Virus record (IMG/VR): IMGVR_UViG_3300035684_000004
Span: 1 to 62,152 of that record
Strand: one strand, 5' to 3'
Length of the DNA stretch: 62,152 bases
DNA from: a virus
Shown: positions 6,874-52,072 of the stretch, in pieces
How positions within the stretch are numbered: the stretch's first letter is position 1
Layout of the letters: every line of letters begins with the position of its first letter
The notes under the pieces: model-generated
The model's input: the letters and a program-made list of their open reading frames with translations, nothing else
Told to the model about the DNA's origin: nothing
Databases searched by the model: none
Program-made: the position numbers and the translations under genes

Positions 6874-6882
6874 GGTCGCTCC

Positions 6883-7332: not shown

Positions 7333-7333
7333 G

Positions 7334-24738: not shown

Positions 24739-24785
24739 CTGCTGCTATCTCCTGTCGGGACGGGCGGGAGCGCGGAGGCCGCTGC

Positions 24786-25199
24786 TCAGACGAACTTGAA
24801 GTAGGCGGCGAGGTCGGCCTTGCCGTTCGCGTCCAGCGCGACCCCGTTGTTGATCGTCGTGATCGCGGCGTCGACGACGACACCCTCGAACCGGAACGCG
24901 GCGAGGATCGGGGTGGTCGTGGGGTTCTCCGGGTCGACGGCGACGTCGGCCTCGAGGAACCCGACGCACACGTTGCGACCGTCGCCGGCGGCGTCGTCGT
25001 ACTTCCCGTACCGGCCGGTCGCCGTGATCTTCCCGAGGTACAGGCCGCTGGGCAGCCGGCCCTGCGGGTAGAACGCGCTCGTCCACGTCGACACGTCGAG
25101 CGTGCAGGGGCGGACGGTGTCCATGCCCTTCGCCGACGCCAGCCACTGCGGGCCGGACATGTCGATGTCGGTGACCTGACGGAGCCTGAGGTTCACCAC
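24786..25199 (-). CDS. Head decoration protein candidate (gpD-like position)
   Basis: 137 aa, immediately upstream of the gpE-like capsid gene. AGGAGA precedes GTG 25199. Confidence 0.55.
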   Translation of the reverse strand: MVNLRLRQVTDIDMSGPQWLASAKGMDTVRPCTLDVSTWTSAFYPQGRLPSGLYLGKITATGRYGKYDDAAGDGRNVCVGFLEADVAVDPENPTTTPILAAFRFEGVVVDAAITTINNGVALDANGKADLAAYFKFV

Positions 25200-25378: not shown

Positions 25379-26080
25379 CTACTTGAGCAGGTGCGCGGGC
25401 TTCTTCCCGGTGAGCCGCTCGATGTGCGCGGCGGCCTGCGCGCCCGGCTTGCTCTTCCCGTCCCCGGACGCGCCGGGGGACCCGACGGGCGGGGTGCCCG
25501 CGCCGCCGGTGGACGGCGTCCCGGACGCCGAGCCGGCGAACGCGCCGGGCAGCTGCTCCTTGAGCTTCCCGACCGCGGCCTTCACCGCTTCCTCGTCGGA
25601 GTCCACGGTCACGCCGAGCGCGGTCAGCGACGCCGTGAGCAGCTCGGGGCTGGTCGCGTTCGCGGCGGTCAGGTGCTTGATCGCGAGCGCGTTCAGCCGC
25701 TCCTTCTTCGCCTCGGCCAGGACCCGCTCGGCCTCGGCCTTCGCCCGCTCGGCGTCGGCCTTCGCCTTCTCCGCCTCCGTCATCGACGCGGCCTGCTGCT
25801 CGGCGTACCGCCGGTACCCCTCGGCCACGATGTTCGGGTCCTCGACACCCAGGCTCTTCGCCCACTCCTGGATCCCCGAGCGCCGGCCCTGGTCCTTCTC
25901 CCGCGCGGCGACCTCGCTGGTGCGGGTGTCGAGCTCCTGCGCGAGGTGCGGGTGCGCCTTCAGCACGTCCGCGAGGGTCCGCGGCGCGGTCGGCGCTCCG
26001 GTCCCGCCGCCGGCCTGGCCGCTGTCGTCGTCGGGCAGGGGCAGTGCGGCGGCCAGCCACGGGCGGTTCTTCGGCGGCAT
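25379..26080 (-). CDS. Scaffolding protein
   Basis: 233 aa, helical and rich in Ala/Glu/Lys. Lies between portal and capsid genes. GGAGGGA precedes ATG 26080. Confidence 0.7.
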   Translation of the reverse strand: MPPKNRPWLAAALPLPDDDSGQAGGGTGAPTAPRTLADVLKAHPHLAQELDTRTSEVAAREKDQGRRSGIQEWAKSLGVEDPNIVAEGYRRYAEQQAASMTEAEKAKADAERAKAEAERVLAEAKKERLNALAIKHLTAANATSPELLTASLTALGVTVDSDEEAVKAAVGKLKEQLPGAFAGSASGTPSTGGAGTPPVGSPGASGDGKSKPGAQAAAHIERLTGKKPAHLLK

Positions 26081-29133: not shown

Positions 29134-29345
29134 TCAGCGGCCGAGGCGCGGGTTCCTCCGGGCGTCCGGGTGCCCGATGTGCCACGCGCGCTTCAAGCTG
29201 TCGTCCCTGCACTCCGTGTGCACTGGTACACGTTCATCGACTTCGCACCCATCCGTTGCCGGTACGCGATCGCGCCGGCCACCGCGGCCTCGCGCGACCA
29301 GTACGGCTTCTTCGCGCACCCCCGGTCCCGTCGCCGCTTCTTCAC
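29134..29345 (-). pseudogene. Small zinc-finger-type ORF interrupted by a -1 frame change near 29215
   Basis: Frame a (GTG 29345, GTGA overlap with the TerL stop) reads VKKRRRDRGCAKKPYWSREAAVAGAIAYRQRMGAKSMNVYQC, then stops. Frame b continues ECRDDSLKRAWHIGHPD to 29134. Confidence 0.45.
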
Positions 29346-30880
29346 CGCGTCCTCCCCCCACCCGACCACCGCTGCGACGACGGCCCGGTCGGGCGCCGCT
29401 CCTGCGACTTCTTCGACCGGTTCGCGGGGAACATCAGCCACCGCAACGCGTGCACCATCGCGTCGACCCGGTCCGGGGACGGCTCGTCCTTGTCGCCCGT
29501 CCACGTCGTCGCCTCGTCCTCGAGCTCCTCGAGCGGGTTCAGGATCGCGCCCGGCTGCGCCAGCGGATGCGAGCTGTCGGGCACGAGCCGGCCCGTGCCG
29601 TCGTCCACCATCGGGATCACCGGCAGGACGTGGTGCACGCGCGGGGGCTTCTGCTCGTACAGCAGCGCGATGGTCTGCGCGCGCAGCCACTTCGACTGGT
29701 TCGGCCCCGACGGAGTCACCCGCACGATCGGCGGCCGCGCGGGCGCGGGGTTCCCGATCCTGCGCTGGTGCTCCACGATCCGGATCCACGCGGCCTTGAG
29801 GATCGACTCGACCATCTCGCCGCCCACGTTGTCCTCGACGATGACGACGTCGACGTCCTGGTCGATGGCCTCCTGCCAGACGACTTCCGCCCACTCCTCC
29901 GGGGTGTACCGCCCGGACAGGTCGTTCAGGACGTACGCGTGGACGTCGCCGTCGAGGCCCACGGTGATGATCCCGGTGAGGTCGGAGACCTCCCCGGACG
30001 TCTTCGCGGGGTCCACGCCGATCGCCTTCACCTGCAGCCGCGGGACGGCGTCCGACCGGAGCCGGCCGTCGTCGATCCACGCCTGCTGCAGCATCGCGCC
30101 CTCGACGTCGGTGAGCAGCTCCCCGTGCAGCTCCTGCCGGCCCAGGCGGGTGCCCTCGTACCGGGCCTGCAGCACCGCCACCGCCGCCGGCGACAGGTTC
30201 GCGAGGTTGTCCGCGGTGTGCCCCCGCGTGACGTGCACCCGCATCCCCTCGGGGCCGTTCACCAGGTCCCGGACGTGCGGCAGGTTCTTCGGGGTCGTCG
30301 TGACGATGACGCGGGGGTCGGTGGCTTCGCGGAGGCAGAACCACAGCTGGTCGAACATGTCCTGCGCGACCTTCCGCGGCCACGCCGCGTACTCGTCGCA
30401 CCAGGCGCCGTCGAACGCGTACCCGCGGATCGCGTCGGGGTCCTCGGCGGAGAACGCCCGGATCATCGTGCCGTCGTCGAGGGTGATGAGCAGCGCCGGG
30501 CTCTTCTTGTAGCTGAACGTGCCGGGCTCGAACACGGCGAGCAGGCCAGCGGACCGGGCCTCGTAGCAGATGGCCTGCACCTCGCGGTGCGTCTTCGCGA
30601 TCACCGCGTAGTGCCCCGGGCCGAGGCCCGCGGCCTGCCGGGCACGGGACCACTTCTTGACCGTCTCCGCGCCGGTGCGGGTCTTCCCCCACCCCCGCCC
30701 GGCGATGATCGCCCACACGTCGTACGGCTCGGCCGGCTCGAGCTGGTCGGGCCGGGCGTGACGCTCCCAGTCGTACTCGCGGCGCTTCAGCTCAGCGATC
30801 AGCGCCCGGGACCGCCGGTACAGCTCGCGGTCGGTGAGGAGCTCGGGTGGCCGCCACGTCGGCGGCCGGTACGTCGTCAC
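29342..30880 (-). CDS. terL: Terminase large subunit
   Basis: 512 aa from GTG 30880. Walker A in AIIAGRGWGKTRTG. The C-terminal nuclease-type region includes IITVGLDGD and VIVEDN. Confidence 0.92.
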   Translation of the reverse strand: MTTYRPPTWRPPELLTDRELYRRSRALIAELKRREYDWERHARPDQLEPAEPYDVWAIIAGRGWGKTRTGAETVKKWSRARQAAGLGPGHYAVIAKTHREVQAICYEARSAGLLAVFEPGTFSYKKSPALLITLDDGTMIRAFSAEDPDAIRGYAFDGAWCDEYAAWPRKVAQDMFDQLWFCLREATDPRVIVTTTPKNLPHVRDLVNGPEGMRVHVTRGHTADNLANLSPAAVAVLQARYEGTRLGRQELHGELLTDVEGAMLQQAWIDDGRLRSDAVPRLQVKAIGVDPAKTSGEVSDLTGIITVGLDGDVHAYVLNDLSGRYTPEEWAEVVWQEAIDQDVDVVIVEDNVGGEMVESILKAAWIRIVEHQRRIGNPAPARPPIVRVTPSGPNQSKWLRAQTIALLYEQKPPRVHHVLPVIPMVDDGTGRLVPDSSHPLAQPGAILNPLEELEDEATTWTGDKDEPSPDRVDAMVHALRWLMFPANRSKKSQERRPTGPSSQRWSGGGRTR

Positions 30881-31044
30881 CAGAGCCACCGGTCCGGGGG
30901 CGCGTCGCGCCGGGACCCGGCCGAGCACGGCGGCCCACCCGCCTGCAGGTAGATCCCGGCGTCGCTCAGCATCCGTCGGCAGGTGCGGCAGTGCTTGAGC
31001 TGCCACCACCGCAGCCGGCGGCCGCACCACTCGCAGCGCTTCAT
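30877..31044 (-). CDS. Small zinc-ribbon ORF (55 aa)
   Basis: ATG 31044 overlaps the RHH stop (ATGA), and its TGA overlaps the TerL GTG. Peptide MKRCEWCGRRLRWWQLKHCRTCRRML (CxxC...CxxC). Below the ORF-track cut-off. Confidence 0.45.
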   Translation of the reverse strand: MKRCEWCGRRLRWWQLKHCRTCRRMLSDAGIYLQAGGPPCSAGSRRDAPPDRWLW

Positions 31045-31250
31045 GAGGGCCGCACCGGGTGGCGCTCGGCGTACTCCCGCAGCGCGGCCTTGATGACCTC
31101 GTGCCGGGTCGTTCCGAGCGCAGCCGCTCGCCGGTCGAGGTAGTCGACACCCGGGCGCCGTACGTCGATCTGCAGGGTCACGACCTCCTCCTCCGGGTTG
31201 CGCTGCTTGCGTGGTCTGCCTGACGGGCGGCCGGTCGGGCGGTAGGGCAT
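31041..31250 (-). CDS. Ribbon-helix-helix (CopG/Arc-like) DNA-binding protein
   Basis: 69 aa. TLQIDVRRPGVDYLDRRAAALGTTRHEVIKAALREY fits a beta strand followed by two helices. Confidence 0.6.
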   Translation of the reverse strand: MPYRPTGRPSGRPRKQRNPEEEVVTLQIDVRRPGVDYLDRRAAALGTTRHEVIKAALREYAERHPVRPS

Positions 31251-40128: not shown

Positions 40129-40207
40129 CGTGACCTCCGCTGTCACTAGATGGTGGGTGTTGCTGACATTCATCAATCTATCTGCATTCGCATTCTCGTG
40201 TCATGAT

Positions 40208-40243
40208 TTCGGCCCGGGAATTGCAGAGAATTCCCGGGCCGAA
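40208..40243 (-). terminator. Perfect 15-bp hairpin closing the FtsK-like operon
   Basis: TTCGGCCCGGGAATT-gcagag-AATTCCCGGGCCGAA read directly. Confidence 0.7.
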
Positions 40244-40262: not shown

Positions 40263-40886
40263 TCAGATGCCTGCCGCCATGAACACGAGGGCGGCGCCTG
40301 CGCCGGCGGCCAGCAGGATCGAGACGGCGTGCGCGGTCCACCCGTCGCTGCGCAGCCCGACACCGCGGTGCGACCACCACGGCGCGAGCGGGATCCCGTG
40401 CCCCGCCTGCCCCCACACCCGCTTCCCGTGGACGAGGTCGCCGGCGAGGTGCGAGCACCAGCCGACCAGCGCAGCCCAGGCTGGCCACGTCGGGATCGAG
40501 ACGCCGGCGAGCAGCAGCCCCAGCTCGACGCTCGCGAGGACGACCGCGCCGAACGCTGCGGCTCCCCACCAGTGGGTGATGCCGCGGTGCTGGCACGGGT
40601 CGCCCCGCCGGACGGCGCGTCGCCACCTCGGGTGCCGGGTCGCGGCCCACGCGAACGCGAGCCACGCGGCGCGCAGGACGTCGGCCCACAGCGGCCGCCG
40701 CGCCCGGTGGAGCCACTGGTCGACGTCGGGCGACAGCTTCCCCCCGGCCGTCGCGGACGCGGCGAGCGCGCTGCCCAGTGCGAGACCGGCCAGGGTCGGC
40801 CCGTGCGCGCCGTGCAGCCAGCCGAGTGCCAGGCCGTAGCCGGTGCCCCACGCGGCGCCCAGCAGCTGGTGGTCGGCGCGGTTCAT
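40263..40886 (-). CDS. Membrane-bound metal-dependent hydrolase-like protein (DUF457/YdjM-like)
   Basis: 207 aa from ATG 40886 (ATGA overlap). Hydrophobic throughout, with MNRADHQLLG...ITHWWG...CSHLAGDLVHG His/Asp motifs. Confidence 0.5.
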   Translation of the reverse strand: MNRADHQLLGAAWGTGYGLALGWLHGAHGPTLAGLALGSALAASATAGGKLSPDVDQWLHRARRPLWADVLRAAWLAFAWAATRHPRWRRAVRRGDPCQHRGITHWWGAAAFGAVVLASVELGLLLAGVSIPTWPAWAALVGWCSHLAGDLVHGKRVWGQAGHGIPLAPWWSHRGVGLRSDGWTAHAVSILLAAGAGAALVFMAAGI

Positions 40887-41128
40887 GACCGCCAACCGGG
40901 GTCGTCGAGGTCGGGGTTTCCGACCAGCACAGGCGGCCACTGCTGTTCGGGGACCTGCGCGAGCAGCCCGTTCCGAATCGCGTACCTCAGGCTCGCGGCT
41001 AGCCCTGCGAGGAACTGGTCGGCGCGAGAGTCGCGCGGCCGCGACAGCTCAGCTACGTACCCGGCCGAAGCGGCGGCCTGCACGACGAGTTCGACGAGGT
41101 GCTCGTCCACCTCGTGCCCGCCGATCAC
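40883..41128 (-). CDS. Hypothetical protein (81 aa)
   Basis: GTG 41128 overlaps the upstream stop (GTGA). Confidence 0.5.
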   Translation of the reverse strand: MIGGHEVDEHLVELVVQAAASAGYVAELSRPRDSRADQFLAGLAASLRYAIRNGLLAQVPEQQWPPVLVGNPDLDDPGWRS

Positions 41129-41934
41129 GCCGTCCCCGCTTCCCGGACGAGGTGCGGGCGCCGCGCCTCGGCGAGCCGGTCGGCGCCGGCCTTCCGCGAC
41201 CCGAGGCCGAACAGGTCCTGGACGCCGACACCCGTGAAGCCGTGCCCGGCCGCGAGCTCCTCCCGCAACCACGCGACGTGGTCGTCGAACGACGTCCCCC
41301 ACGGCGCGCCGTCCCGCCACCCGCCACCGGCGGGAAGTGCCGGGTCCACTGGCGGCGGGGGTGGCGGCGTGGACTGGCGGGCCGCCACCTCCACCGCCTT
41401 CGCCTCGGCGGCCGCCACCCGAGCCGCCAGCTCCTCCAACTGCGCCGCCGCTCGCGCCGCCGCCTTCTTGGCGTCCGTCTCCGCCACGTACCGCCCCAGC
41501 TTCGCCTCCGCCAGCTCGGCGGCCGTGGCGGCGAGGTCGTCGCGGTACTGCAGGCTCGCCCGCCACCGCGACACGATCCGCCACTCCACCACGATCACGA
41601 CCAGGCCGACGCCGAGCGCCTGCCACCGCGGGGACGGCTCGTACACCGACAGCGTGACCGACGCCGCGAGCAGCGCGACGGCGCCCAGTTCGTCGGCGAG
41701 GTGCGCGCGCGGGTCGGTCCACGTCCACAGGACGTACGGCGTCAGGACCAGCGGCACCGCCCACGCCAGGACGCCGAACCCGGCGTGCTGGCCGGCGTGC
41801 AGCTCAAAGCGGCCGACGAGCACCCCGACGGCGAGCAGGGAGACGGTGAACAGTGCCGCCCGGCCCGCCGTCACCAGCTTCTGCGTCCGCGTCCTCGGCG
41901 GCTGGCCAGCGCCGGTCGTCTGCGTCGTGCTCAT
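41125..41934 (-). CDS. Multi-pass membrane protein with coiled-coil C-terminal half
   Basis: 269 aa from ATG 41934 (GGAGGA upstream). About four hydrophobic helices, then an Ala/Glu-rich coil and a PPPPPP linker. Confidence 0.7.
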   Translation of the reverse strand: MSTTQTTGAGQPPRTRTQKLVTAGRAALFTVSLLAVGVLVGRFELHAGQHAGFGVLAWAVPLVLTPYVLWTWTDPRAHLADELGAVALLAASVTLSVYEPSPRWQALGVGLVVIVVEWRIVSRWRASLQYRDDLAATAAELAEAKLGRYVAETDAKKAAARAAAQLEELAARVAAAEAKAVEVAARQSTPPPPPPVDPALPAGGGWRDGAPWGTSFDDHVAWLREELAAGHGFTGVGVQDLFGLGSRKAGADRLAEARRPHLVREAGTA

Positions 41935-42427
41935 CGTCCTCGTCCTCCGTTGCGTCGATCGGGGCTGTCGACCCGGTGCCAGCCTGGCCCGACAGGTCTT
42001 CGGTGGGGTGCTCCTCACGGCGGGGCGCCGGCGGCGGGAGCGGCTCGTCGTCGTCCTCGAACAGGAACGCGTCGAGCTGGTCGTTGCGGCGGCCGCGCAC
42101 CACCGCCACCCCGGCGGCCGCCACGAGGGCGAGGCCCGCCACGGCGAGCACCGCCAGCCACGGGACGCCGCCACCCTGCTCGGTGGCCGGAGCCGCCACG
42201 GGACCGGTGGCGGCCGGTGGCGGGGCGCCGGTGTCCGCTGCCACCGCGACCGCCACCGCGACCACCCCGGCCGCCACCAGCCAGCGCAGCACCGGCCAGG
42301 CGTGCACGAGGTACGGGTGGCGGCGGCCCAGCTCGCCGGCGGCCGCCATCCGGGTGATGCCGTTGACCCTCCGAGTCGCCAGGAGCAGCGCGAGCAGCAC
42401 CAGCGCGACGACGATGACCCAGCGCAT
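41804..42427 (-). CDS. Membrane protein (three hydrophobic segments, acidic tail)
   Basis: 207 aa. ATG 42427 begins MRWVIVVALVLLALLLA. The last ~40 codons overlap the next gene, so the 3' end is uncertain. Confidence 0.6.
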   Translation of the reverse strand: MRWVIVVALVLLALLLATRRVNGITRMAAAGELGRRHPYLVHAWPVLRWLVAAGVVAVAVAVAADTGAPPPAATGPVAAPATEQGGGVPWLAVLAVAGLALVAAAGVAVVRGRRNDQLDAFLFEDDDEPLPPPAPRREEHPTEDLSGQAGTGSTAPIDATEDEDDEHDADDRRWPAAEDADAEAGDGGPGGTVHRLPARRRGARRPL

Positions 42428-42469
42428 GTGCGCCTCCTCTGCTGTGCCGCCCGGGGGCCGGGCGGGCTC

Positions 42470-43009
42470 CTACTGCGCGGTGAACGCGCCGCCGTGCTTC
42501 TGCCGGCGCTTCGCCGACAGGATCGTCTGGTTCACCTCGGCGCGGACCTTCGCCGCGCTCGCGGCCCGCTTCGCGACTGTCGCCTCCGCAGCGGCCAGCT
42601 TCACGTGCGCCCGGCGGAGCCGGAACGACGCGAGCGCCTTCTGGCTCGTGGTGAGCTGGTCCGCCCGCTTGATCGACCGGCGGAGCAGCGCCTCGGCCTC
42701 GAGGATCGCCGCCCGGCCCGCGAGGGCGTGCTTCGCGATCCGCACGAGGTACGCCCGGTGCGCGGCGGGGTTCCCGATCCCGGCGTAGGCCTGCGCGGGG
42801 TGCGCGCGCGCGTTCCCGGTCGAGCTCTCCCCGATCGCGGTGAACGTGCCCGTGGACTGCCCGGTCCCGACGGGCGGCGTGCCCCACGCGGCCTCAGCGG
42901 CCGGCATCACGTCGGCTGCAGGCATCGGAAGGGTGGGCCGCGGCGAGCGAGGGGCGCGCGGCGGACGCGGCGTGCGGGGTGGGGTGGTCGCTGGCTGGCT
43001 CACGGTCAC
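42470..43009 (-). CDS. Hypothetical protein (Pro-rich N-terminus, helical basic C-terminus)
   Basis: 179 aa. First ORF downstream of the repeat array. Confidence 0.6.
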   Translation of the reverse strand: MTVSQPATTPPRTPRPPRAPRSPRPTLPMPAADVMPAAEAAWGTPPVGTGQSTGTFTAIGESSTGNARAHPAQAYAGIGNPAAHRAYLVRIAKHALAGRAAILEAEALLRRSIKRADQLTTSQKALASFRLRRAHVKLAAAEATVAKRAASAAKVRAEVNQTILSAKRRQKHGGAFTAQ

Positions 43010-43018
43010 TCTCCGTAC

Positions 43019-43171
43019 TTGTCAGGTGGTCTTGTCAGGTGCGATGTCAGGTCCCGTTACGCCGGACAACGAGCGGTTGTCAGGTGCGATGTCAGGCCGC
43101 TTGTCAGGTGCCTTGTCCGGTCCGACGGCTTAGGGAGAGCGCCGACAACCGCCGCCGCCTCTTGTCCGTCC
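43019..43171. repeat. Array of 8 direct copies of TTGTCAGGTG-type 10-mers, plus an inverted copy
   Basis: Copies start at 43019, 43032, 43044, 43077, 43089, 43101, 43113 and 43162. An inverted TTGTCCGG lies at 43062..43069. Phasing is 12-13 bp. The 20-mer TTGTCAGGTGCGATGTCAGG occurs twice. Confidence 0.92.
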
Positions 43172-43180
43172 GGGCACACG

Positions 43181-45700
43181 TCACGCGGTCAGCGCCTCCA
43201 CGTCACGCAGCGCAGCGTCGTCGCGCGCCTCGTCGAGCTCGTCGCCGTCCTCGTCGGCGGGGTCGTAGTCGTCCGGGATGACGAGCGGCTCGTCGAGGAC
43301 GTGCTCGCTGATCGCCCACTCGCCGCGGGCGAGCTGCCGCGCGGTCGCTGGCCGGCCCGGGCGGGTCTTCGTGTGCGCCTCGAGCCGCGGGTACAGCGCC
43401 GGGCGGACGTCCTCGCCGGGGAAGTCGAGCCACAGCGCGACGAGCGTCTCCGTGCTGACCCGCACCCACCGGGTCCCGTCGGGGCCGGCCTGCACCTCGC
43501 CGGGCGGCACGCGCTCGCCGTCCGAGAGCTTGACGTGCTGGGCCGGGTCCGTTTCGGTGAACAGCCGGCGCACCATCGCCTGGAAGTTCGCGGCGCGCTG
43601 CTGCGGGGACGGCCGCGGGCCGGACGCCGGCAGGGACCAGTCGACGGCCGGGTCGTCGTCGCCGTCCTGCGGGCCGTCGACCTGCGCGACGAACCGCTCG
43701 ACGGGGATCCGCGGGTCGGGCGTCTCGTCGGGGTCCGGGCCGAGCTCGTGGGTCACCTCGGCGTCGATCTCGTCGTCCAGCAGGTCGCTCTCGAGCGCGA
43801 CCTGCTGGCGCATGTGCTCGCTCATCGTGTCGTCGTCCTCCTCCAGCTCGGCGAGCGCCAGGTCAGGCGCCGCCTCGGTCTCTTCGTCGGGGTGCACGGG
43901 CTCCTCCTGCTGCGCCGGCGGCCCGGCCGGGGTCGGCGGTGTCGGGGTCGGCGGGGTTGGCTTCGGGGCCTGCTCGATCCACTTCCTGACGGCCGGGTCG
44001 CGCAGCTGCGGCACCTTGCCGTACTTCGACGACAGCCACGTCCCGACGGTGACGACGTCGCGGCGGGCGTACGACGCGCGGCGCGTCGCGGCGCCCGCGA
44101 ACACCTCGGCGGTGGCCTGGTCGAGCTCGTGCCACTCCGGGTGCTTGACCATCCACTCGGCGACCGTGGCGGCGAGCAGCAGCCGGTCGGGGCGCTCGGT
44201 GCGGCGCTTCATCGGCCACCGGTTCTTCTTCTCACCCGCGAGCTCGGCGTAGTGCAGGCCCGGCTGCTCCATCGGGTCGAAGGTCCACGGCTCGGCGCCG
44301 GCGTCGAGGGTGTCCTCGGACAGCGCCATCCGGGCGTCCTCAGGCTTGTCGCACGCGAACGCCATCGACTCAGGAACGAGGTTCCGGAAGTCGGTCGACA
44401 CGTTCTCCTCCGACGGCCGCTGCAGCTCGGTGACGACCTTGAAGCCGGCGGAGCGCCACACCTCGACGCCCCGGGCCCACTCCTCCTCGAACGGGCCCAT
44501 CAGCGGCGCGGCCTCCGCGAACCAAGCCAGGACGAACGGGATCCCGAACTCGGTCCAGCACCGCGGCGTCCACCGGTCCTCGCCGGTGAGGTCGGTGATG
44601 AGCTGCGTCCGCACCGGCACCGCGGCGGCCAGCGCACGGAGCTGCGCCTCGGCTCCCTCCGGCGTGGACTCGAACCAGTGCAGGAACGGCCGGACGAACG
44701 GCACCCACTGCCCGGCCTTGCGGGTGTCGGACGCGATGACAACGATGCCCTGCCGGGCGACGAGCTCGCCGAGCAGGTTCACCTGGAACGCGGTCTTCGC
44801 CGCGCCGCTCTTCCCGGACGAGATCAGCGACGGGGAGCCGACGAAGTCGTCGGTCGGGGTCATCGACCAGCGCGACTCCTTGCGGTCCGCGGTCCACCCG
44901 ACCCGGATCGGCTCCCACACGCCGGCGCCCGCCCGGACCGGGCCCTTCCAGTCGGGCACGTTGTCGAGGTACGCGCTGCGCGAGATGACGAGCTTGGTGC
45001 GGTGCGCGAGCGTCCGGCCGGCCTCGAGCACGGGGTCGATCCGCACGGACCCGGACGGCAGCTTCGCCTTGGCCTCGATCCGCTGCTTCGCGCGGACCAG
45101 GTCCTCGCGGGTGTTCTCGGTGTGCTCGACGAGCACGTGCCGCTCGCCGTTCTTGTCCTCGGCCTTCACCGGGCGGGTGCTGTCGGCGAGGCCGACGGCG
45201 CGCTGCCAGGCGCCGTCCTCGTCGCCGTGGTGGTCCGTGCCGTCGCCGCGGTGCACGGGGTACTGCACGACGACGTGCCACAGCGCGATCAGGCACCCGG
45301 TCGGCAACACGAGCACGATGTGCCAGAACGGCACCGCTCCGATCAGGGTGGTGACCGACCAGACGGCAGCGAGCCACCCGATGGACAGGGCGAGCCGGCG
45401 CCGGTTCCACGGGTTCCGGGACTGCGAGGACCTCCACAGCGCCACGGTGAGCGCGGCGCCGCACGCGCCGAGCATGAACGTCAGGTGCGGGACGTAGTCG
45501 AAGCGGACGGCGAGCGCGTGCCAGCCGAGGCCGAGCAGCGGGACGACGAGCACGAACACCACGAACGGCAGGACCGCGGTGTCCCAGCCGCCCTTAACGA
45601 CGTCGAACAGGCCGCCCTGCCCGCGCCGCCACTGCTGCGGCGCGGGCTGCGCGGTCGGCTTCGGCTTCGCGGTCGTGCGCGGCCGGGTCCTGCTCGCCAC
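43181..45700 (-). CDS. Membrane-anchored FtsK/SpoIIIE/TraB-like ATPase candidate
   Basis: 839 aa. About four N-terminal TM helices. P-loop-like LISSGKSGAAKT, and a Walker-B-like FVLAWFAEAA. The C-terminus is acidic with an RPATARQLARGEW helix. GGAGG precedes GTG 45700. Confidence 0.6.
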   Translation of the reverse strand: MASRTRPRTTAKPKPTAQPAPQQWRRGQGGLFDVVKGGWDTAVLPFVVFVLVVPLLGLGWHALAVRFDYVPHLTFMLGACGAALTVALWRSSQSRNPWNRRRLALSIGWLAAVWSVTTLIGAVPFWHIVLVLPTGCLIALWHVVVQYPVHRGDGTDHHGDEDGAWQRAVGLADSTRPVKAEDKNGERHVLVEHTENTREDLVRAKQRIEAKAKLPSGSVRIDPVLEAGRTLAHRTKLVISRSAYLDNVPDWKGPVRAGAGVWEPIRVGWTADRKESRWSMTPTDDFVGSPSLISSGKSGAAKTAFQVNLLGELVARQGIVVIASDTRKAGQWVPFVRPFLHWFESTPEGAEAQLRALAAAVPVRTQLITDLTGEDRWTPRCWTEFGIPFVLAWFAEAAPLMGPFEEEWARGVEVWRSAGFKVVTELQRPSEENVSTDFRNLVPESMAFACDKPEDARMALSEDTLDAGAEPWTFDPMEQPGLHYAELAGEKKNRWPMKRRTERPDRLLLAATVAEWMVKHPEWHELDQATAEVFAGAATRRASYARRDVVTVGTWLSSKYGKVPQLRDPAVRKWIEQAPKPTPPTPTPPTPAGPPAQQEEPVHPDEETEAAPDLALAELEEDDDTMSEHMRQQVALESDLLDDEIDAEVTHELGPDPDETPDPRIPVERFVAQVDGPQDGDDDPAVDWSLPASGPRPSPQQRAANFQAMVRRLFTETDPAQHVKLSDGERVPPGEVQAGPDGTRWVRVSTETLVALWLDFPGEDVRPALYPRLEAHTKTRPGRPATARQLARGEWAISEHVLDEPLVIPDDYDPADEDGDELDEARDDAALRDVEALTA

Positions 45701-45872
45701 CTTGCCTCCGTTCAGCGTGCCAGCGCTGTCCTAGTCGGTGGGACGCACGTCTATGTCACGTCGTGCCGTCCCGCGGCACAAGAGTGGGGCATGATCTGCC
45801 GTAGCGCAACCACTTGTCAGACACGCGGGCGCGTTTCCGCAGGTCACGAGCGGGCGGGTGCTGACAAACGAC

Positions 45873-45906
45873 AGTGCCCCCCACCCCGGGTGGGGTGGGG
45901 GGCACT
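45873..45906 (-). terminator. Perfect 15-bp hairpin terminator
   Basis: AGTGCCCCCCACCCC-gggt-GGGGTGGGGGGCACT, followed on the minus strand by GTCGTTTG. Confidence 0.8.
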
Positions 45907-45989
45907 GGATCGCGCGGGGTGATGGCCGCCACCCGGCGATCACCGCCGCGCTGGCAAGGCGAGGACGAACTAGCCAGCGTGGCGGAGTC

Positions 45990-46589
45990 CTACTCGGTGG
46001 ACGAGAAGTCCACCGCCACGACCGGGCCGGACGCCGCGCGCTTCCTCGGCCTCCGCGTCGTCGTCTCGCCACCGGTCGCCGGCCGCTCGCCGTCCGGGCC
46101 CGGCTCGCCCGGGTCGCGGGTGCCGGTGCCGTCGAGGTCCAGGGGCTGCTCCCCGAGCCGCACGTCCCGCAGCTGGTGCATCAGCCCGACGACCGTCTCC
46201 GTCGGCTTCCCGGGCAGGGCCTCGTGCATGAGGTCGAGGAGCTTCTGCCCCTCGGCGTTCTCGCCGACGACGTCGTTCAGCTCGCTCAACAGCCCGCGCA
46301 GCTTCTCGGCGAGATCGATCGTGTCGCGGTCCAGGACCGGCTCGACCGCGACGAACCGCAGCTCGATGCTCGGCGCCTTCTCGATCCCCGGCCGGCCGAT
46401 GTGCCCCACCCGGCCCTCGAGCACGCCGACCACCGGGAACCGCAGCGACTCCCCCGTCTGGTCGTTCTCCCGCAGCGCCGTCATGAACGCCTCGTACATC
46501 GGCTTCGCCATCAGGTCCAGGCCGCTGGCCTCCCGGGACGGCTGGTACCTCGACAGGCTCACCGTCGGCTCGTTGCTCTTCTCCGCCAC
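45990..46589 (-). CDS. Hypothetical protein (199 aa)
   Basis: GTG 46589 is preceded by AAGGAGGA. Confidence 0.7.
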   Translation of the reverse strand: MAEKSNEPTVSLSRYQPSREASGLDLMAKPMYEAFMTALRENDQTGESLRFPVVGVLEGRVGHIGRPGIEKAPSIELRFVAVEPVLDRDTIDLAEKLRGLLSELNDVVGENAEGQKLLDLMHEALPGKPTETVVGLMHQLRDVRLGEQPLDLDGTGTRDPGEPGPDGERPATGGETTTRRPRKRAASGPVVAVDFSSTE

Positions 46590-46602
46590 GTCATCCTCCT
46601 TG

Positions 46603-47070
46603 TCAGCCTCGCCGCGACCTGCGGCGAGGGAACAGCGACTCCATGCTCATCAGCCCGGGGCGCGGCGCCGGGTCCCCGCCGACGTCGAGGTCCAGGGCTG
46701 CCTGGCCCGCTGTCGGGCCGGACTTGGGGCGCGGCCGCGGCTTCCGCTCGCGGTGCGGGGGGTTCTTGCACGTCGCCCAGTGCGGGATCCCGGGCCGTTC
46801 CTCCGCGCGGAGCGGCTCGGCCTCCGACAGCACGCGGGCGATCCAGGAGCCGTGCTGGTCCTTCTTCACGCCCAGGTTCGGCACCGGCTTCCCGGGCTCG
46901 GCCAGCAGGCGGCCGCCCTCGGTGAGGAGCGGCGGGAGCGGCCAGTCGACCATCATGGGCCGGCCACCGACCATCTTGCCGGTGCGCTCGTCGAGCTGCC
47001 GGGCGGTCCGCATCCACATCGTGGTGCCGTCGCAGCCGGGCTGCGAGCAGACCGTCGACCGCTCAGCCAC
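46603..47070 (-). CDS. Hypothetical protein (155 aa) with N-terminal CxxxC
   Basis: GTG 47070 lies 2 nt after the upstream stop. The RBS is weak. Confidence 0.5.
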   Translation of the reverse strand: MAERSTVCSQPGCDGTTMWMRTARQLDERTGKMVGGRPMMVDWPLPPLLTEGGRLLAEPGKPVPNLGVKKDQHGSWIARVLSEAEPLRAEERPGIPHWATCKNPPHRERKPRPRPKSGPTAGQAALDLDVGGDPAPRPGLMSMESLFPRRRSRRG

Positions 47071-47389: not shown

Positions 47390-48292
47390 TCAGGCGCCGC
47401 CCAGGTAGTCCGCACACGCCAGCTCGACCGCCCGCCACAGCGGCATCTCCCGGTCGCCGGCGTCCCGCCGGACCTTCTTCGCCGCCCGGACGATGACCGC
47501 AGCGGCGTCCGGCGGCACCGCCCGCGTCCCGAGCATGGACTCCACCGGCACGTGCTCCTTCCGGCGCGGCTCGCCGTCGCCGTCGAGCCAGCCGGCCTGC
47601 GTCGCTTCGAGGTTCGCCTCGAACACGTCGAGGATCAGGCCCAGCGCCGTGGCGACGTTCCCGACCTTCCACGCGGCGTGCGCCGTCTCGAGCGCGTCCA
47701 GCGTCGGGTCGTACTGCGCGAGCGCGGCGACCCACCGGCCCGCGACCGTGCCGGCGAGCTTCCGGGCGTCGTCCAAGGCCTGCTGCGCCCGCTCGAGCTC
47801 GGCGGGCAGGAACACCAGCGTCACCGTCTGGAAGTCCAGGTTCGCCTCGGACAGGCCCTGCACGTCAACCTTCGTCAGCAGGTCGAGGGTCTTGTCGTCG
47901 AGGCCCGCGTACGCCCGCCAGTCGACGTCGTCGAGCTGCTCGTACAGCGCCTTGAGCGTGGCCGGGTCGTCCTCGCCCTCGATCGCGTTGTGCGACAGCT
48001 GCCGGGCGATGATCTGCTGCTTGGACTGCTCATCGCGGACGACGAGCACGTGGTCCTCATGGTCGCGGCCGAGCGCCGTCATCGCGGCCTCGATCCGGTG
48101 GTGCCCGGACACGATGTCCCCGGGCACGGCCGGGTCAGGCTCGTAGATCAGGGGGAGGGACGTGAGCCGGCCGTCGGCGCGGATGTTCGCGACCAGCCGG
48201 TCGAACGTCTCCTTCCGCATAAACCGCGCGTTGACCGCCTGCGGGTTGAAGTCGGCGAGGCGCCGCTTCTGGATCTCGACGTTCAGGGTCAT
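47390..48292 (-). CDS. ParB-like nuclease (ParBc/Srx) domain protein
   Basis: 300 aa from ATG 48292 (ATGA overlap). N-terminal LPLIYEPDPAVPGDIVSGHHRIEAA motif. Confidence 0.72.
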   Translation of the reverse strand: MTLNVEIQKRRLADFNPQAVNARFMRKETFDRLVANIRADGRLTSLPLIYEPDPAVPGDIVSGHHRIEAAMTALGRDHEDHVLVVRDEQSKQQIIARQLSHNAIEGEDDPATLKALYEQLDDVDWRAYAGLDDKTLDLLTKVDVQGLSEANLDFQTVTLVFLPAELERAQQALDDARKLAGTVAGRWVAALAQYDPTLDALETAHAAWKVGNVATALGLILDVFEANLEATQAGWLDGDGEPRRKEHVPVESMLGTRAVPPDAAAVIVRAAKKVRRDAGDREMPLWRAVELACADYLGGA

Positions 48293-49680
48293 GCCGGCCA
48301 CCTCTGGTCGCTCGAGTGCTTGTCCATCCACGTGGCGAGCGCGCCGGCGAGGTCCCACGCCCCCAGCGGGCCCTCGTAGTTCAGCATGTAGCGGTGCACG
48401 CCGTCCTTGGCCGTGCCGCCCTCGCCGCCGTCCTCCCGCTTCGCGAGCTTCATGCCGGGGATCCCGCGGCCGTACTTCGCGGACTGCGGGTTGTCGCTGA
48501 ACGCGGTCGTCAGCACGGTCCGGAGCCGGCGGGACAGGGGCCGCTGCAGGAGATGCCGGGCCTCGTCGCTCATGGCGGCCATCACGATCAGCTTCGAGAG
48601 GCGGCGGTACTGCGTCCACGCGACGGGGAAGTCGGACAGCAGGTACGCCTGCGACGGCTCGTACTTCGGGCCGCTGTACGCGAACGCGCCGATCAGCTTC
48701 CCGCCCGCGGAGACGCCGACGGCGAGCAGCGGGCTGCCCGGCAGGATGCTCTTGTTCATGAACTGCGAGCGGAGCGCGGAGAACTCCGGGCCGGTGAGCA
48801 CGTGCAGGCGCAGCGGGCCCTCGAGGTCCTCCCACGGGCCGAGCTTCGGCATCAGCACCGGCGCGGTCTGCTGCCGGGGCTGCACGATCCGGGTGGTCAT
48901 GCCCGCGCTGTACACGTAGATCGAGACGCCCCGGTTCGTCGTCTGCACCACACCCCGGAGGTGCTCGCGCAGCTCCGGGCGCTCAACGTGCAGGCCGAGG
49001 ATCCACGCGGGCCGCTCGACGACCAGGCGGACGAGCTCGTCCTTGCCGTGCTCGTCGAGCGGCGGGTACGTCGGCGCCGGCCAGTCGAAGAACGTGTCGA
49101 TGCCCGCGAACTGCTGCTCGTAGTCGCCGCGGGCCTTCCCGTCGCTGGTGCGCTCGCCGCCGTAGAACGGCGGGAACATCACGACCGGCGCGGCTGGTGG
49201 GGCGACGTCGGCGACGAACTCGCGAACGTCCATCGGGGAGAACGACGCGAGCTGCAGGGTGAGGCCCTCGAGCTTCGCGCGGGTCTTCCCGTGCATGGTG
49301 GGCCACTGCTCGCGGGTCGCGGCGAGCATCCGCTCGTAGTAGCGGCCGGTCTTGCCGATCAGGCCGAGGAACCGGGTGCCGAGCATCAGGGTCGCCATCG
49401 TCCCGGCGCGGCCGTCGAGGTACGGCGCGAGCCAGTCGAGCCGCTCGGCGTGCTCTGGCTTGAGCGTGAACGGGAGCTCGGCGCCGGTGAGGTACCAGCC
49501 GAGCGCGCAGGAGTAGCCGGTGACGTCGTTGCTGTGGAGCCGACACCCGCGGTCGGCGAGCACCCGTTCCAGGGTCATGTTGCCCGAGCACCCGACGTAC
49601 ACGTCGTCGTCGGGGCCCCACTCCGCGGACCGCTCCCAGACCAGCGAGCGCATGTCGCCGGGTATCGAACCGTGGAACAC
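48289..49680 (-). CDS. D12-class adenine-methyltransferase-like protein with degenerate motif IV (FPPF) and an unknown C-terminal domain
   Basis: 463 aa from GTG 49680 (CAGCGGAGGAG 7 nt upstream). YVGCSGNMT resembles motif I. VVMFPPFYGG sits where DPPY is expected. Confidence 0.5.
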   Translation of the reverse strand: MFHGSIPGDMRSLVWERSAEWGPDDDVYVGCSGNMTLERVLADRGCRLHSNDVTGYSCALGWYLTGAELPFTLKPEHAERLDWLAPYLDGRAGTMATLMLGTRFLGLIGKTGRYYERMLAATREQWPTMHGKTRAKLEGLTLQLASFSPMDVREFVADVAPPAAPVVMFPPFYGGERTSDGKARGDYEQQFAGIDTFFDWPAPTYPPLDEHGKDELVRLVVERPAWILGLHVERPELREHLRGVVQTTNRGVSIYVYSAGMTTRIVQPRQQTAPVLMPKLGPWEDLEGPLRLHVLTGPEFSALRSQFMNKSILPGSPLLAVGVSAGGKLIGAFAYSGPKYEPSQAYLLSDFPVAWTQYRRLSKLIVMAAMSDEARHLLQRPLSRRLRTVLTTAFSDNPQSAKYGRGIPGMKLAKREDGGEGGTAKDGVHRYMLNYEGPLGAWDLAGALATWMDKHSSDQRWPA

Positions 49681-49795
49681 GGGGGCCTCCTCCGCTGAGA
49701 CGGCGTCGCCCCCGGGGGCAGTCGGCCAGGAACCTTGCGGAGGAACCGACATGACCACACCCGGGGGCGACAGGGGCCGGTCCCGGGGGACCGAG

Positions 49796-49867
49796 AGCGG
49801 GAGGCAGGGATCGAACCTGCCCCTCCCCCCTGGAAGGGGGGCGCGCCACCTTCGGCGCTTCTCCCGC
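49796..49867 (-). tRNA. tRNA-Gly (anticodon UCC)
   Basis: Hand-folded cloverleaf: GCGGGAG AA GCGC CGAAGGTG GCGC G CCCCC CTTCCAG GGGGG AGGG GCAGG TTCGATC CCTGC CTCCCGC T. All stems are Watson-Crick, U33 and A37 are present, and no CCA is encoded. Confidence 0.9.
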
Positions 49868-50082: not shown

Positions 50083-50390
50083 CGCGTTGCTCCCGTCGGT
50101 GCGTCGGCCACGGTCGCGAGGTACTTCCGGGCGGCGTCCATCGCCCGGGCGTGCTCGTCGGCGCTGCTCTCCCGGAGCCTGAGCTGGCGGTGGGCGTCCT
50201 CGTCGTCGTGGTCGCCGTCGGCGTGACCCACCAGGAACGCGGCCGCCTCCTCCGTGTGCCCGCCGAGGTGCAGCACGTCCGCGAGCGCGTCGGCCTCGGT
50301 GCAGGTCATCGCGGTGCCGATCGCGGTGGCGGTCCAGGAGTCGCCCACGACGTCCGCGAGGTACGCGACGGCGCTGGTCAGGTCGCTCAC
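50079..50390 (-). CDS. Hypothetical acidic/His-rich protein (103 aa)
   Basis: GTG 50390 overlaps the ParB stop (GTGA). Confidence 0.6.
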   Translation of the reverse strand: MSDLTSAVAYLADVVGDSWTATAIGTAMTCTEADALADVLHLGGHTEEAAAFLVGHADGDHDDEDAHRQLRLRESSADEHARAMDAARKYLATVADAPTGATR

Positions 50391-52072
50391 GGCTTGGCCA
50401 GCTTCGCGGCGCGCTTCTCGACGTCGGACAGCTGGTAGCCCATGCGCTCGCTCAAGAACCGCAGGTACCGGGCGGTGTGGTCCGGCTTCCCGCGCCAGTC
50501 GTTCCGGTCGGTGGCCTGTTCGTACGCCGCGAGCACGAGCGTGAGAACCTCGACCAGGCCCGCCGGCTCGGTCTTCTTCCCGGCGGCCGTGACCCGCTTG
50601 AGCAGCTCGTCGCGGGCGTAGGTGACCTTCTTGACGCCGAGCAGGGTCAGGCCGTAGGTGTCGCCGAAGTGGTCGCGGAGCGCGAACCCGTCAGCGACCA
50701 GCGCCGCCATGAGCAGCTGGGAGGTGCCCTTGGGGACGGCCTTCATCTTCACCGCGGTCTTGAGCCACTCCCGGCGCAGCTCCTCCGCCGCCGTCCACGC
50801 CTTGTTCGACGCGATGACGTCGGCGCGCTCCGCCCGGGCCTGCTCTTTCGCGGCCGCCTCGTCGAGGGGCTGGCCGACGCCGCCCATCGTGGCGGCTGAC
50901 GCGCCGCCGCGGATCGTGTGCAGGTCGGGCTGCGTGCAGACGTACGCTCCGCCGGCGTACTTCACCCACTCGGACTGGCGGGGCTTCTCGGCGAGCTCGT
51001 CGCCCGGCAGGGCGACGTCCTCCACCGGACGCGGCGTCACGACGTCCTGGTCGATCTCGTAGTCGCCGTCCTCGTCGTCGTCGAGCGCGTCGTCGCCGGC
51101 CTCGAAGTCCACCTCGTCGTTGACCATCGCGAGCACGACCCGGTGGCCGGCCCCGTGCACGAGCTCGCGGGTGTCCAGCCACACGTCGCCGTTGAAGACG
51201 TCGACCTGCACGCCGTGACCGGGGCAGTCGGCGTGCTCCGCGCCGGTCATCGTCTTGTACGGGTCGTCGGGCTCCGACACGGCGAACGACCGGAGCGCCA
51301 CGCACGGCTCGTCGTCCGGGACGACGCGCAGCCCCAGCTCGAGCGCCTTCTCCAGACCCGCCTTGACCAGCCGGTCCTCGACCTCCTTGTTGCGGACCTC
51401 CTGGATCCGCTGCCGCAGCATCCACGAGCCGCCCTGCGCGAGCTCGATCAGCTCTGCCTGCTCAGGCTTGCCGTCGAACTCGGCCAGGGCGGCCGCGACG
51501 TCGAGGTACTGGCCCGGGTTCGGCTGCTCCATCAGGAACGCCTTCGCCGTCTGCGACCGGGCCACCGTGAGCCGCTGCGCGACCGTGTCCGGCCGCGTCT
51601 TCGTGGCGGCCGCGATCTCGTCCGCCGACATGCCGAACAGCGACAGCTGCTCGACGGCGTTCAGGCGGTCCAACTCGGTTAGCCCGGCGCGGGCGTCGTT
51701 CTCCGCGATCTGCGTGAGCAACCGCTCGATCTGCGCGGGGTCGTTGTGCTGCTCGTCGCCCGCGATGAGCACGGGCACGCGGTCCAGACCGGCCTCGATG
51801 GCGCCGACGGTGCGGCGGTGCCCGAACTTGACCCGCAGCTGGTCGTAGCTCTTTCCCTTGTCAGGAACGACGACCATGCCCGTTCGGACGGCGACGATGG
51901 GCTGCAGGACGCCGTGGAGCCGCAGGGACTCGACGAACTCGGCGTCGGCGGCGGTGGTCATGCGGACGTTGCGGTCGAGCAGCAGGGACCGCGGGTCGCG
52001 GTACACGAGCTCGAGGTCGTACGTCGGGGTCCCGGCCGGTGTCGTGGCCGGTGCATCGGTGGTGCTGGTCAA
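50387..52072 (-). CDS. ParB/Spo0J-family protein (N-terminal ParB domain + HTH, long C-terminal extension)
   Basis: 561 aa. LRVKFGHRRTVGAIEAGLDRVPVLI is followed by an HTH-like SADEIAAATKTRPDTVAQRL. TTG start at 52072, with GGAGGAG 6 nt upstream. Confidence 0.72.
   Translation of the reverse strand: MTSTTDAPATTPAGTPTYDLELVYRDPRSLLLDRNVRMTTAADAEFVESLRLHGVLQPIVAVRTGMVVVPDKGKSYDQLRVKFGHRRTVGAIEAGLDRVPVLIAGDEQHNDPAQIERLLTQIAENDARAGLTELDRLNAVEQLSLFGMSADEIAAATKTRPDTVAQRLTVARSQTAKAFLMEQPNPGQYLDVAAALAEFDGKPEQAELIELAQGGSWMLRQRIQEVRNKEVEDRLVKAGLEKALELGLRVVPDDEPCVALRSFAVSEPDDPYKTMTGAEHADCPGHGVQVDVFNGDVWLDTRELVHGAGHRVVLAMVNDEVDFEAGDDALDDDEDGDYEIDQDVVTPRPVEDVALPGDELAEKPRQSEWVKYAGGAYVCTQPDLHTIRGGASAATMGGVGQPLDEAAAKEQARAERADVIASNKAWTAAEELRREWLKTAVKMKAVPKGTSQLLMAALVADGFALRDHFGDTYGLTLLGVKKVTYARDELLKRVTAAGKKTEPAGLVEVLTLVLAAYEQATDRNDWRGKPDHTARYLRFLSERMGYQLSDVEKRAAKLAKP

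Follow-up and report, generated by a model that had tools for sequence, protein, structure and literature searches.

A candidate TraB/clt-type DNA translocation module conserved in a clade of siphovirus-type actinophages

A TraB-like gene, a repeat array and membrane protein genes lie between two hairpins

The viral genome IMGVR_UViG_3300035684_000004 from IMG/VR (62,152 bp, analysed over its whole length and referred to here as the window) has a G+C content of ~72% and carries almost every gene on the minus strand. Here, we describe a unit of this genome that begins with the gene for an 839-amino-acid (aa) TraB-like protein, a membrane-anchored member of the FtsK family, and continues with a clt-like array of short repeats and five downstream genes, d1 to d5 (Table 1). 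TraB-type transfer is the simplest conjugation system known, consisting of one protein and a short DNA site. A preliminary description of the same DNA had read the gene order as traB-clt-membrane genes inside a tailed phage. This reading is upheld by TraB profile homology, by an FtsK-motor fold, by a winged-helix-like C-terminal domain, by the match of the array to clt loci and by the conservation of the arrangement. Wherever the analysis could look for the three findings that the description had named as refuting it, none turned up.

The two perfect hairpins said to bracket the unit are both present and very stable. The upstream one (45873-45906; perfect 15-16 bp stem, folding free energy -43 kcal/mol, z-score -5.75) sits after the stop codon of the gene at 45990-46589 and forms the 5' boundary, and equivalent hairpins occupy the same place in the related contigs L001, L004, L008 and L013. 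In the downstream one, a perfectly paired stem of 15 bp carries a 6-nt loop (-28.3 kcal/mol, z-score -5.27). For each hairpin, none of 200 shuffled sequences folded equally well. Because a promoter-like site follows each of them, the hairpin pair delimits a plausible transcription unit. In the promoter-like site that precedes the TraB-like gene, whose activity is predicted from its sequence, the -35 region (45813-45820, CTGACAAG) reproduces exactly the motif that makes up the array. The same place in L001 holds GTGAACAAG, ~17 nt and GATCAT.

Table 1. Features of the TraB-like operon and of the surrounding phage genome, in window coordinates
Feature	Position	Strand	Remarks
Upstream hairpin	45872-45907	(-)	terminator-like; 16-bp stem, 4-nt loop, then TCGTTTGTC (T-rich tract)
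Inverted array-motif copy	45861-45868	(-)	TTTGTCAG, complement CTGACAAA; just past upstream terminator hairpin
Promoter-like site	45791-45820	(-)	CTGACA, 18 nt, GATCAT
TraB-like membrane-anchored FtsK-family protein	43181-45700	(-)	839 aa
clt-like array	43018-43168	(-)	eight co-oriented 8-bp repeats in the 171-bp gap 3' of the TraB-like gene
Array copies CGGACAAG	43161-43168, 43112-43119	(-)	
Array copies CTGACAAG	43100-43107, 43031-43038, 43018-43025	(-)	
Array copies CTGACATC	43088-43095, 43043-43050	(-)	
Array copy CTGACAAC	43076-43083	(-)	
Inverted motif copies within array	43063-43070, 43142-43149		
CCCTAAG element	43130-43136		within array gap
d1	42470-43003	(-)	Pro-rich N-terminus and conserved basic helical C-terminal ~115 aa
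d2	41804-42427	(-)	membrane protein, 3 predicted transmembrane segments, acidic C-terminal tail
d3	41125-41934	(-)	membrane protein, 3-4 transmembrane segments, coiled coil, poly-Pro stretch, C-terminal domain; start uncertain
d4	40883-41128	(-)	81-aa open reading frame; relatives have 93-99-aa frames at the same position
d5	40263-40940	(-)	YdjM (PF04307, formerly DUF457)-like membrane protein
Downstream hairpin	40208-40243	(-)	after YdjM-like stop; 3' boundary of unit
Promoter-like site for next gene	40175-40204		ATGACA, 18 nt, TAGATT; after downstream hairpin
ParB_N-like and DAM-like/GNAT-phage-like cluster	47390-48301, 48289-49680, 50387-52072	(-)	upstream of TraB-like operon
Large terminase (TerL)	29342-30928		
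Portal	26173-28062		
Scaffold	25379-26080		
Major capsid	23674-24738		
Endolysin	21942-22823		
Major tail protein	12508-12999		
Tape measure	7334-10765		

The large protein is a distant TraB homologue with the fold of an FtsK motor

The TraB-like gene is a true coding sequence (G+C content at third codon positions, GC3, of 0.98). The NCBIfam model NF041214 (plasmid_TraB) matches its product with an E value of 5.8e-60 (residues 58-544, model positions 24-501 of 639), and a tblastn search returned 51 actinomycete plasmids at 25-32% identity, many of them with the matching gene annotated as traB. The PHROG family phrog_24831, to which no function is attached, matches at 2.5e-38, and a deep sequence search gathered 515 relatives. 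Judged by its sequence, the protein is a clear distant homologue of TraB, not an equivalog.

We built an AlphaFold2 model on a 107-sequence alignment; it replaced a nine-sequence run that gave a predicted local distance difference test (pLDDT) score of 47. The final model has a pLDDT of 84 overall and of 96-98 in the motor core. In a Foldseek comparison with the Protein Data Bank (PDB), the FtsK motor came out on top (2ius and 6t8o; E 1e-12, template-modelling score 0.62-0.64 over ~400 columns), followed by TcpA and EccC. An ATPase fold of the FtsK/HerA type, which the preliminary description had named beforehand as a check, is thus found. From the N- to the C-terminus, the protein is laid out as a transmembrane (TM) part (~39-146), a beta domain (~176-290), the motor core (~291-540), an acidic disordered linker (~590-690) and a winged-helix-like C-terminal domain (~699-802). 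The approximately four N-terminal TM helices noticed earlier are recovered by hydrophobicity prediction and by the AlphaFold2 model alike (39-67, 70-91, 97-120 and 124-146), showing that a TraB-type membrane anchor is present. In the role proposed below, the protein would form a hexamer or pore and drive the transfer of double-stranded DNA (dsDNA) with ATP.

Many TraB-like proteins end in a '...PG..RPALxRRL...GRGxWR' domain, with which the C-terminal domain (699-802) can be aligned. In the model, its secondary structure elements are ordered alpha-beta-alpha-alpha-beta-beta (pLDDT >90), which is the winged-helix topology, and its profile matches in the PDB are winged-helix regulators only (CooA, DasR, ArsR, HxlR and FadR), at sub-threshold E values of 0.05-0.5. 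The stretch RPATARQLARGEW, previously taken for a C-terminal helix, is predicted to form the beta-hairpin wing of this domain instead, and the model places the likely recognition helix at 766-777 (RPALYPRLEAHT). As in related proteins, the winged-helix domain may read the repeats of the array.

The array that follows the gene resembles known clt loci

The preliminary description had reported a phased array of 10-bp repeats 3' of the 839-aa reading frame. The phased array is real, but its unit measures 8-9 bp and recurs every 12-13 bp rather than 10 bp. The copies fall into two blocks and follow the consensus C[T/G]GACA[A/T][G/C], mostly C[T/G]GACAAG. The array is the strongest local 7-mer cluster of the genome (6 copies in 89 bp, against a maximum of 4 in 30 shuffles), with no second array elsewhere: six of the ten exact CCTGACA copies of the genome lie within 43020-43108 (89 bp). 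The exact motif CTGACAAG occurs six times genome-wide, always on the minus strand, that is the strand of the gene, where by our own arithmetic base composition predicts ~0.8 copies on both strands together. Three of these six copies are in the array and one is the -35 copy at 45813-45820; the other two lie at the end of the gene 46603-47070 (46599-46606) and inside the ParB-like gene 50387-52072 (51857-51864). A genome-wide skew, as displayed by FtsK orienting polar sequences (KOPS), would have to be judged on just 3 exact copies outside the array, which are too few.

Upon comparison of the lineages, we noticed that each one repeats its own variant of the motif outside its array. The variant found in the array of a given lineage reappears in its promoter gap (in L013, for instance, as CTTGTTCG), and an inverted copy of the lineage's own variant lies at the place equivalent to 45861-45868 in L001, L008 and L013. 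Going by their sequence, these copies at promoter and terminator suggest autoregulation by the TraB-like protein.

Known clt loci are built along similar lines. In pJV1, the clt locus follows traB and contains nine CCGCACA[C/G][C/G] repeats, arranged as two blocks. That of pWTY27 comprises 16 bp of the tra gene and the next 159 bp (~175 bp) and is required for transfer; the Tra protein of this plasmid binds the clt repeats in electrophoretic mobility shift and footprint assays (Wang et al. 2012, PMC3583192). In the pWTY27 sequence (NC_013667.2), the clt locus contains CCTGACACC/GTGACACC repeats, CTGACAC, an inverted GGTGTCAC and a CCCCTAGG element. As in the window, then, the gene for a membrane-anchored FtsK-like protein precedes repeats of 7-8 bp that have CTGACA as their core, and these are accompanied by an inverted copy and a CCCTA(A)GG-type element. 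The 85.5-kb plasmid pCQ3, which carries traA-traB, likewise has CTGACA-type repeats, an inverted TGTCAG and CCTTAGG in the gap after traB, followed by small open reading frames (ORFs). The phage array is thus a site of the kind found in the defined clt loci, with even the motif core in common.

Two further elements lie in or next to the array. Two GCGTGACGTG copies, 22 bp apart (43177-43208), overlap the stop codon of the TraB-like gene and partly resemble the SpdA-binding sps palindrome CGTCACGTGACG of Streptomyces plasmids, a resemblance that may be due to chance. A CCCCTA(A)GG element stands between the inverted copy and the direct repeats of nearly all phage arrays. The positions of CCCTA(A)GG are 43130-43136 in the window, 12591-12598 in L013, 4576-4583 in L014 and 5861-5868 in pWTY27 (L010). 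This conserved element may provide a second site of binding, to be used for instance by a host factor.

The operon and its array are conserved across phage lineages

The tailed-phage setting claimed in the preliminary description is borne out by genes for TerL, portal, scaffold, capsid, tail, tape measure and endolysin (Table 1) and by a closed genome, and the virion gene set is siphovirus-type. The 77-bp exact direct repeat at the two ends of the window (1-77 = 62076-62152) is an assembly overlap: the genome is complete at ~62.1 kb and is closed circular, terminally redundant or circularly permuted. Proteins identical to those of the window are deposited in NCBI, JGI/IMG and Logan on a contig of 62,152 bp.

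Five close relatives of the TraB-like protein (45-58% identity) are encoded in the same gene order on metagenome contigs, which reach 59.5 and 66.5 kb. This order consists of two conserved upstream genes, the TraB-like gene, the gap, d1, the membrane proteins, an ~95-aa ORF, a YdjM-like gene, DUF932 and ParB_N. Synteny with related phages, raised earlier as a means of judging the unit, extends to all retrieved relatives down to 30% identity: the P0014 clade (38% identity, 58-kb contig) and the P0016 clade (30% identity) retain the same arrangement, and in the latter a terminase gene lies 6.5 kb downstream (L015). Overall, the contigs of the relatives measure 58-66 kb and have a phage context. 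An array of an 8-bp motif with 11-13 bp phasing follows the gene in all eight retrieved relative lineages, again down to 30% identity (homologous arrays in L001, L004, L008, L013, L014, L015 and L016). In each relative, a CCCCTA(A)GG element and an inverted motif copy belong to the array as well. L013 has twelve copies of CGAACAAG, and L015 and L016 have four copies of CCGAACAAN each. In L013 an unrelated ORF stands in place of d1, with the position of the array unchanged. No similar sequence was found among cultured phages by tblastn and megablast against INPHARED (50,697 records), even at E<=1; one metagenome scan found no relative, and a scan of IMG/VR gave a single distant match.

The downstream set listed in the preliminary description (a helical basic protein, two membrane proteins, an 81-aa ORF and a DUF457-like protein) was confirmed in full. 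For d1, conservation extends to the start MSQPA and the ribosome-binding site GGAGAGTGA (a purely mechanical call puts the ORF start at 43009), and no Pfam, PDB-profile or PADLOC match was found; its assignment to a known DNA-binding fold was dropped in view of the PDB profile search. The gene d3 is missing from lineage L004. The true start of d5 is probably M19 at 40886, which overlaps the d4 stop. The YdjM match of d5 (E 2.8e-5) is under the Pfam cutoff, and all four homologues that were scanned match as well, the best at 7.5e-8. Among all operon proteins this weak YdjM match was the sole one in Pfam, with none to a Spd-type family, and BLASTP against the traB neighbours of pCQ3, pWTY27 and pJV1 gave a best E value of 0.004 over 59 aa. 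Homology of the flanking genes to TraA or Spd was therefore rejected at the sensitivity of BLAST and Pfam, and the earlier likening of the downstream proteins to Spd finds no support at the level of sequence. The membrane proteins among them would fit Spd proteins by position and TM content, in an arrangement that is conserved in relatives, and any Spd label that we give them is an analogy of position and membrane character only. A reading of the operon proteins as a defence system was discarded, as PADLOC returned no matches.

The nucleotide-binding site is remodelled in a subclade

The segments SSGKSGAAKT and FVLAWFAEAA, previously picked out as P-loop-like and Walker-B-like, do align with the Walker A and Walker B motifs of TraB and FtsK, but both are deviant. 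Walker A reads GKSGAAKT (G296-T303) and Walker B ends in ...WFAE396, and neither follows the canonical GxxGxGK[ST] and hhhh[ED]E patterns. The P-loop lysine K302 and the catalytic E396 are invariant among 107 relatives, and the RSAG, QRPS and STDxR motifs are retained. The combination of GAAKT with A-E is confined to a six-member clade, that is the window and its five close relatives, and the Walker A/Walker B states are graded over the sister phage clades, from GKT/EE in P0016 through SAKT/EE in P0014 to AAKT/AE in the clade of the window. Since the deviant site is kept across 45-58% identity, it is under selection and not in decay.

Likeness to plasmid transfer systems, plasmid-phages and FtsK

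The Tra protein of pWTY27 shares ~25% identity with the window protein and differs from it in its canonical GSGKG/EE motifs and in a shorter C-terminus without the long acidic linker. Unlike the window, pWTY27 is a theta plasmid of 14 kb that carries traA and encodes Rep and a GntR regulator, and it has no head-tail set. One ORF of this plasmid (L010, 6651-8111) is annotated as a phage major capsid protein. In pSVH1, the winged helix of TraB recognises 8-bp clt repeats, and Spd proteins are encoded nearby (Vogelmann et al. 2011; Thoma et al. 2015, PMC4447253). Like the window protein, in which the last of these parts is predicted, pSVH1 TraB combines a membrane part, an FtsK-like translocase and a C-terminal winged helix, and small membrane proteins adjoin its gene; the window differs in lacking TraR, in its motif, in the absence of Spd similarity in d1-d5, and in that the host element is a phage. 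FtsK and SpoIIIE share with the window protein the motor fold, four N-terminal TM helices, a long linker, a C-terminal winged helix (predicted in the window protein) and polar 8-bp motifs. In contrast to KOPS and the SpoIIIE recognition sequences (SRS), the sites in the window are gathered in one gene-adjacent array instead of being spread chromosome-wide, and the identity of the proteins is ~15%.

Elements that join virion genes to a tra locus on one replicon have been described. As cited in PMC3583192 and PMC4487206, the Streptomyces plasmid-phage pZL12 (Zhong et al. 2010) carries transfer genes. The plasmid-phages pZL12, pCQ3 and pSLE1 (85-90 kb) resemble the window in this combination, whereas the window is 62 kb long and is without detectable ParA/ParB partition pairs, RepA, integrases, traA and GntR. 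Its TerL is remote from that of the plasmid-phage group (~30-33% identity over ~45% of the length), and its TraB-like protein has ~26-30% identity to theirs and deviant ATPase motifs; the window belongs to a separate clade. In pCQ3 (L009), the capsid gene (24010-24942) lies 10 kb downstream of traB; as pWTY27 and pCQ3 show, phage genes are repeatedly found together with TraB elements in plasmids of Streptomyces. Of the features that mark phage-plasmids, the virion set and a closed assembly were seen in the window, and Rep, ParA and an integrase were not found. The window is a free 62-kb phage genome, which sets it apart from the integrative and conjugative elements of actinomycetes (AICEs), defined by an integrase/excisionase, Rep and TraB in a tRNA gene. 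SpdB2 homologues have been reported in the actinophages phiC31 and VWB, for which spreading of phage DNA within hyphae has been suggested (Thoma et al. 2015, PMC4447253). These phages have Spd-like proteins and not TraB with clt, whereas the window has a motor and an array and no Spd homology.

A proposed role in DNA transfer and its alternatives

Taken as a whole, we read the unit as a TraB/clt-type dsDNA translocation module that forms the core operon of a clade of ~58-66 kb siphovirus-type actinophages and serves self-transfer or spreading, and we put the probability of this reading at roughly 55%. In such a module, transcription would run from the promoter-like site at 45791-45820 to the hairpin at 40208-40243. 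The 839-aa protein would enter the membrane via its four N-terminal helices and assemble into an FtsK-like ring, and its C-terminal winged-helix domains would recognise the C[T/G]GACAAG repeats 3' of their own gene. The spacing of the repeats, close to one turn of the helix, would allow a ring to load several of its domains on one face of the DNA. Through a septal cross-wall or a cell-cell contact, the motor would then transport the dsDNA of its own element, so that the phage, or a plasmid-like form of it, could spread through a mycelial host without virions. The products of d1, d2, d3 and the YdjM-like gene, co-transcribed with the motor, may act as Spd-like accessories, and by way of the motif copies at the -35 region and after the upstream terminator the same protein probably controls its own expression. 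We hold a more comprehensive version tentatively, as one that could be right but that we would not bet on. In it, a non-integrating phage clade of mycelial actinomycetes would have two routes, virions on the one hand and, on the other, self-regulated loading of TraB on the clt array with dsDNA pumped through cross-walls or hyphal contacts, and the nucleotide site of one subclade (GAAKT/AE) would have been remodelled while still being selected.

A number of observations weigh against the translocation module. The plasmid_TraB score of 203.5 bits is far below the equivalog cutoff of 800, and the C-terminal third of the model is unmatched. Profile searches supported the TraB family invoked in the preliminary description (NCBIfam, 5.8e-60), but the Pfam model FtsK_SpoIIIE did not match the 839-aa protein and no Spd-type Pfam match was obtained. 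At the nucleotide site, the position before the P-loop lysine (301) is Gly in 99 of 107 relatives and Ala in the window; position 395 is Glu or Asp in 99 of 107, with E-E in 96 of 107, where the window has A-E. To go by these residues, the clade of the window may have a weaker or modified ATPase activity. Among the 50 non-structural proteins of the window that were scanned, no integrase, Rep or ParA was detected, nor was a GntR-type TraR/KorA repressor of the kind used in kil-kor control. No similarity to the TraA or Spd proteins of plasmids could be detected in the products of d1-d5 or of the upstream genes. Lastly, scans of GTDB representative genomes with the TraB-like profile and the capsid protein found no relatives.

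Other readings would have the protein pump DNA for another purpose, or not pump at all. A TraB-like protein could serve segregation, pumping or clearing episomal phage copies through cross-walls or sporulation septa for inheritance and not transfer. Its fold and polar, co-oriented repeats are those of FtsK with KOPS, an episomal state would be possible given the closed circular assembly and the missing integrase, and, with several ParB_N proteins encoded and no ParA or other segregation NTPase found, there is a gap that it could fill. We nevertheless consider this role unlikely, as the sequence affinity of the protein is to conjugative TraB and not to chromosomal FtsK, the array matches clt loci needed for conjugation, no plasmid replicon was detected and no relative turned up in isolate genomes. 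The protein might also have ceased to pump and have become a membrane-bound, sequence-specific DNA binder, that is a tether or an operator-binding regulator of its own operon. The Gly-to-Ala change in Walker A and the acid-to-Ala change in Walker B are unique to its clade and conserved in it, the motif copies at the -35 region and past the terminator covary with the array variant in relatives, and the array lies immediately upstream of the d1 ribosome-binding site, all of which would suit such a derivative. Against it, selection has kept the entire motor fold together with RSAG, QRPS, the P-loop Lys/Thr and the catalytic Glu. Canonical GKT/EE is found in sister clades whose array and synteny are the same, so that arrays are not peculiar to the degenerate clade. 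The canonical motifs in sister clades mean that the ancestral module was very probably an active pump, and we regard loss of pumping as quite unlikely.

It would be more surprising if the array had nothing to do with the TraB-like protein and were instead a set of origin iterons, a centromere for ParB or (in the manner of ParR/parC) for d1, or a packaging (pac) site. Two blocks of phased repeats before the gene of a small basic helical protein do resemble parC/ParR, ParB_N proteins are encoded 4-9 kb away, and this is the sole repeat array of the genome. Yet its position 3' of the TraB-like gene is kept in all lineages, even in L013 where d1 is replaced, and its motif core and accessory elements are common to the clt loci of pWTY27 (proven) and pCQ3 (putative). 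There is no adjacent Rep gene and no AT-rich unwinding region, and the small-terminase PHROG match falls outside the TraB-like operon; we judge an unrelated array very unlikely. That the unit is a mere passenger, captured recently as a piece of an AICE or plasmid and without a role in the phage, can hardly be believed. While its nearest annotated homologues are plasmid TraBs, the gene, array, flanks and hairpins are syntenic in phage contigs at 30-58% identity of the TraB-like protein, a depth of conservation that largely refutes recent capture. Its G+C content and GC3 match those of the rest of the genome, and no integrase or Rep lies nearby.

The preliminary description had further called the locus an unusual phage/conjugative hybrid. 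A conjugative-style operon does reside in a phage, but 'unusual' is overstated because TraB-bearing Streptomyces plasmid-phages of the pZL12/pCQ3 type are already known. Transfer genes in the plasmid-phage pZL12, the same association in pCQ3-type plasmids and Spd homologues in phiC31/VWB are thus not new. What is new is a separate phage clade of ~58-66 kb, uncultured apart from this record, with TraB and a clt-like array as a conserved core operon, together with motif copies in the promoter, the absence of a recognisable plasmid backbone and a graded remodelling of the ATPase site. A full-text literature search found no description of such a TraB-clt phage clade.

If the translocation module is real, virion and conjugation-like routes would be stably combined in one element, and the old idea of phage DNA spreading inside the mycelium would gain a concrete mechanism. 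Spread through a colony without an extracellular step would sidestep receptor-based resistance, and the module would be relevant to phage resistance and gene flow in actinomycetes that produce antibiotics. A single gene, a 150-bp array and four or five genes for small membrane proteins make up the module. With so few parts, all of them mapped, the idea is directly testable. The Walker-state series GKT/EE, SAKT/EE and AAKT/AE amounts to a natural experiment on the tolerance of FtsK-type motors, and the array and the winged-helix domain may constitute a new orthogonal DNA-protein recognition pair.

Other features of the phage genome

Outside the operon and the virion genes, the window encodes ParB_N, DAM-like/GNAT, DUF932, ribbon-helix-helix and single-strand annealing proteins. 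The ParB_N-like/DAM-like cluster lies in a genome without any ParA and is kept in relatives; its candidate roles are partition, nuclease activity and DNA modification. A repressor was not detected among the 50 non-structural proteins either. The 69-aa ribbon-helix-helix (CopG-type) protein (31041-31250, minus strand), which exceeds the Pfam cutoff, was the sole recognisable small regulator detected, with no further lysogeny-type gene.

In a 410-aa protein (17094-18326, minus strand), which is probably a tail fibre, Gly-X-Y repeats of the collagen kind (Pfam Collagen, E 1.9e-16) extend over a long region. This region accounts for the period-9 tandem repeats at 17873-18203. In the related contig L013, a 390-aa protein with a weak cytochrome P450 match is encoded upstream of the TraB-like gene (6555-7727), an unusual cargo for a phage. 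The early region of the window holds one tRNA-Gly(TCC) gene (49795-49867, minus strand).

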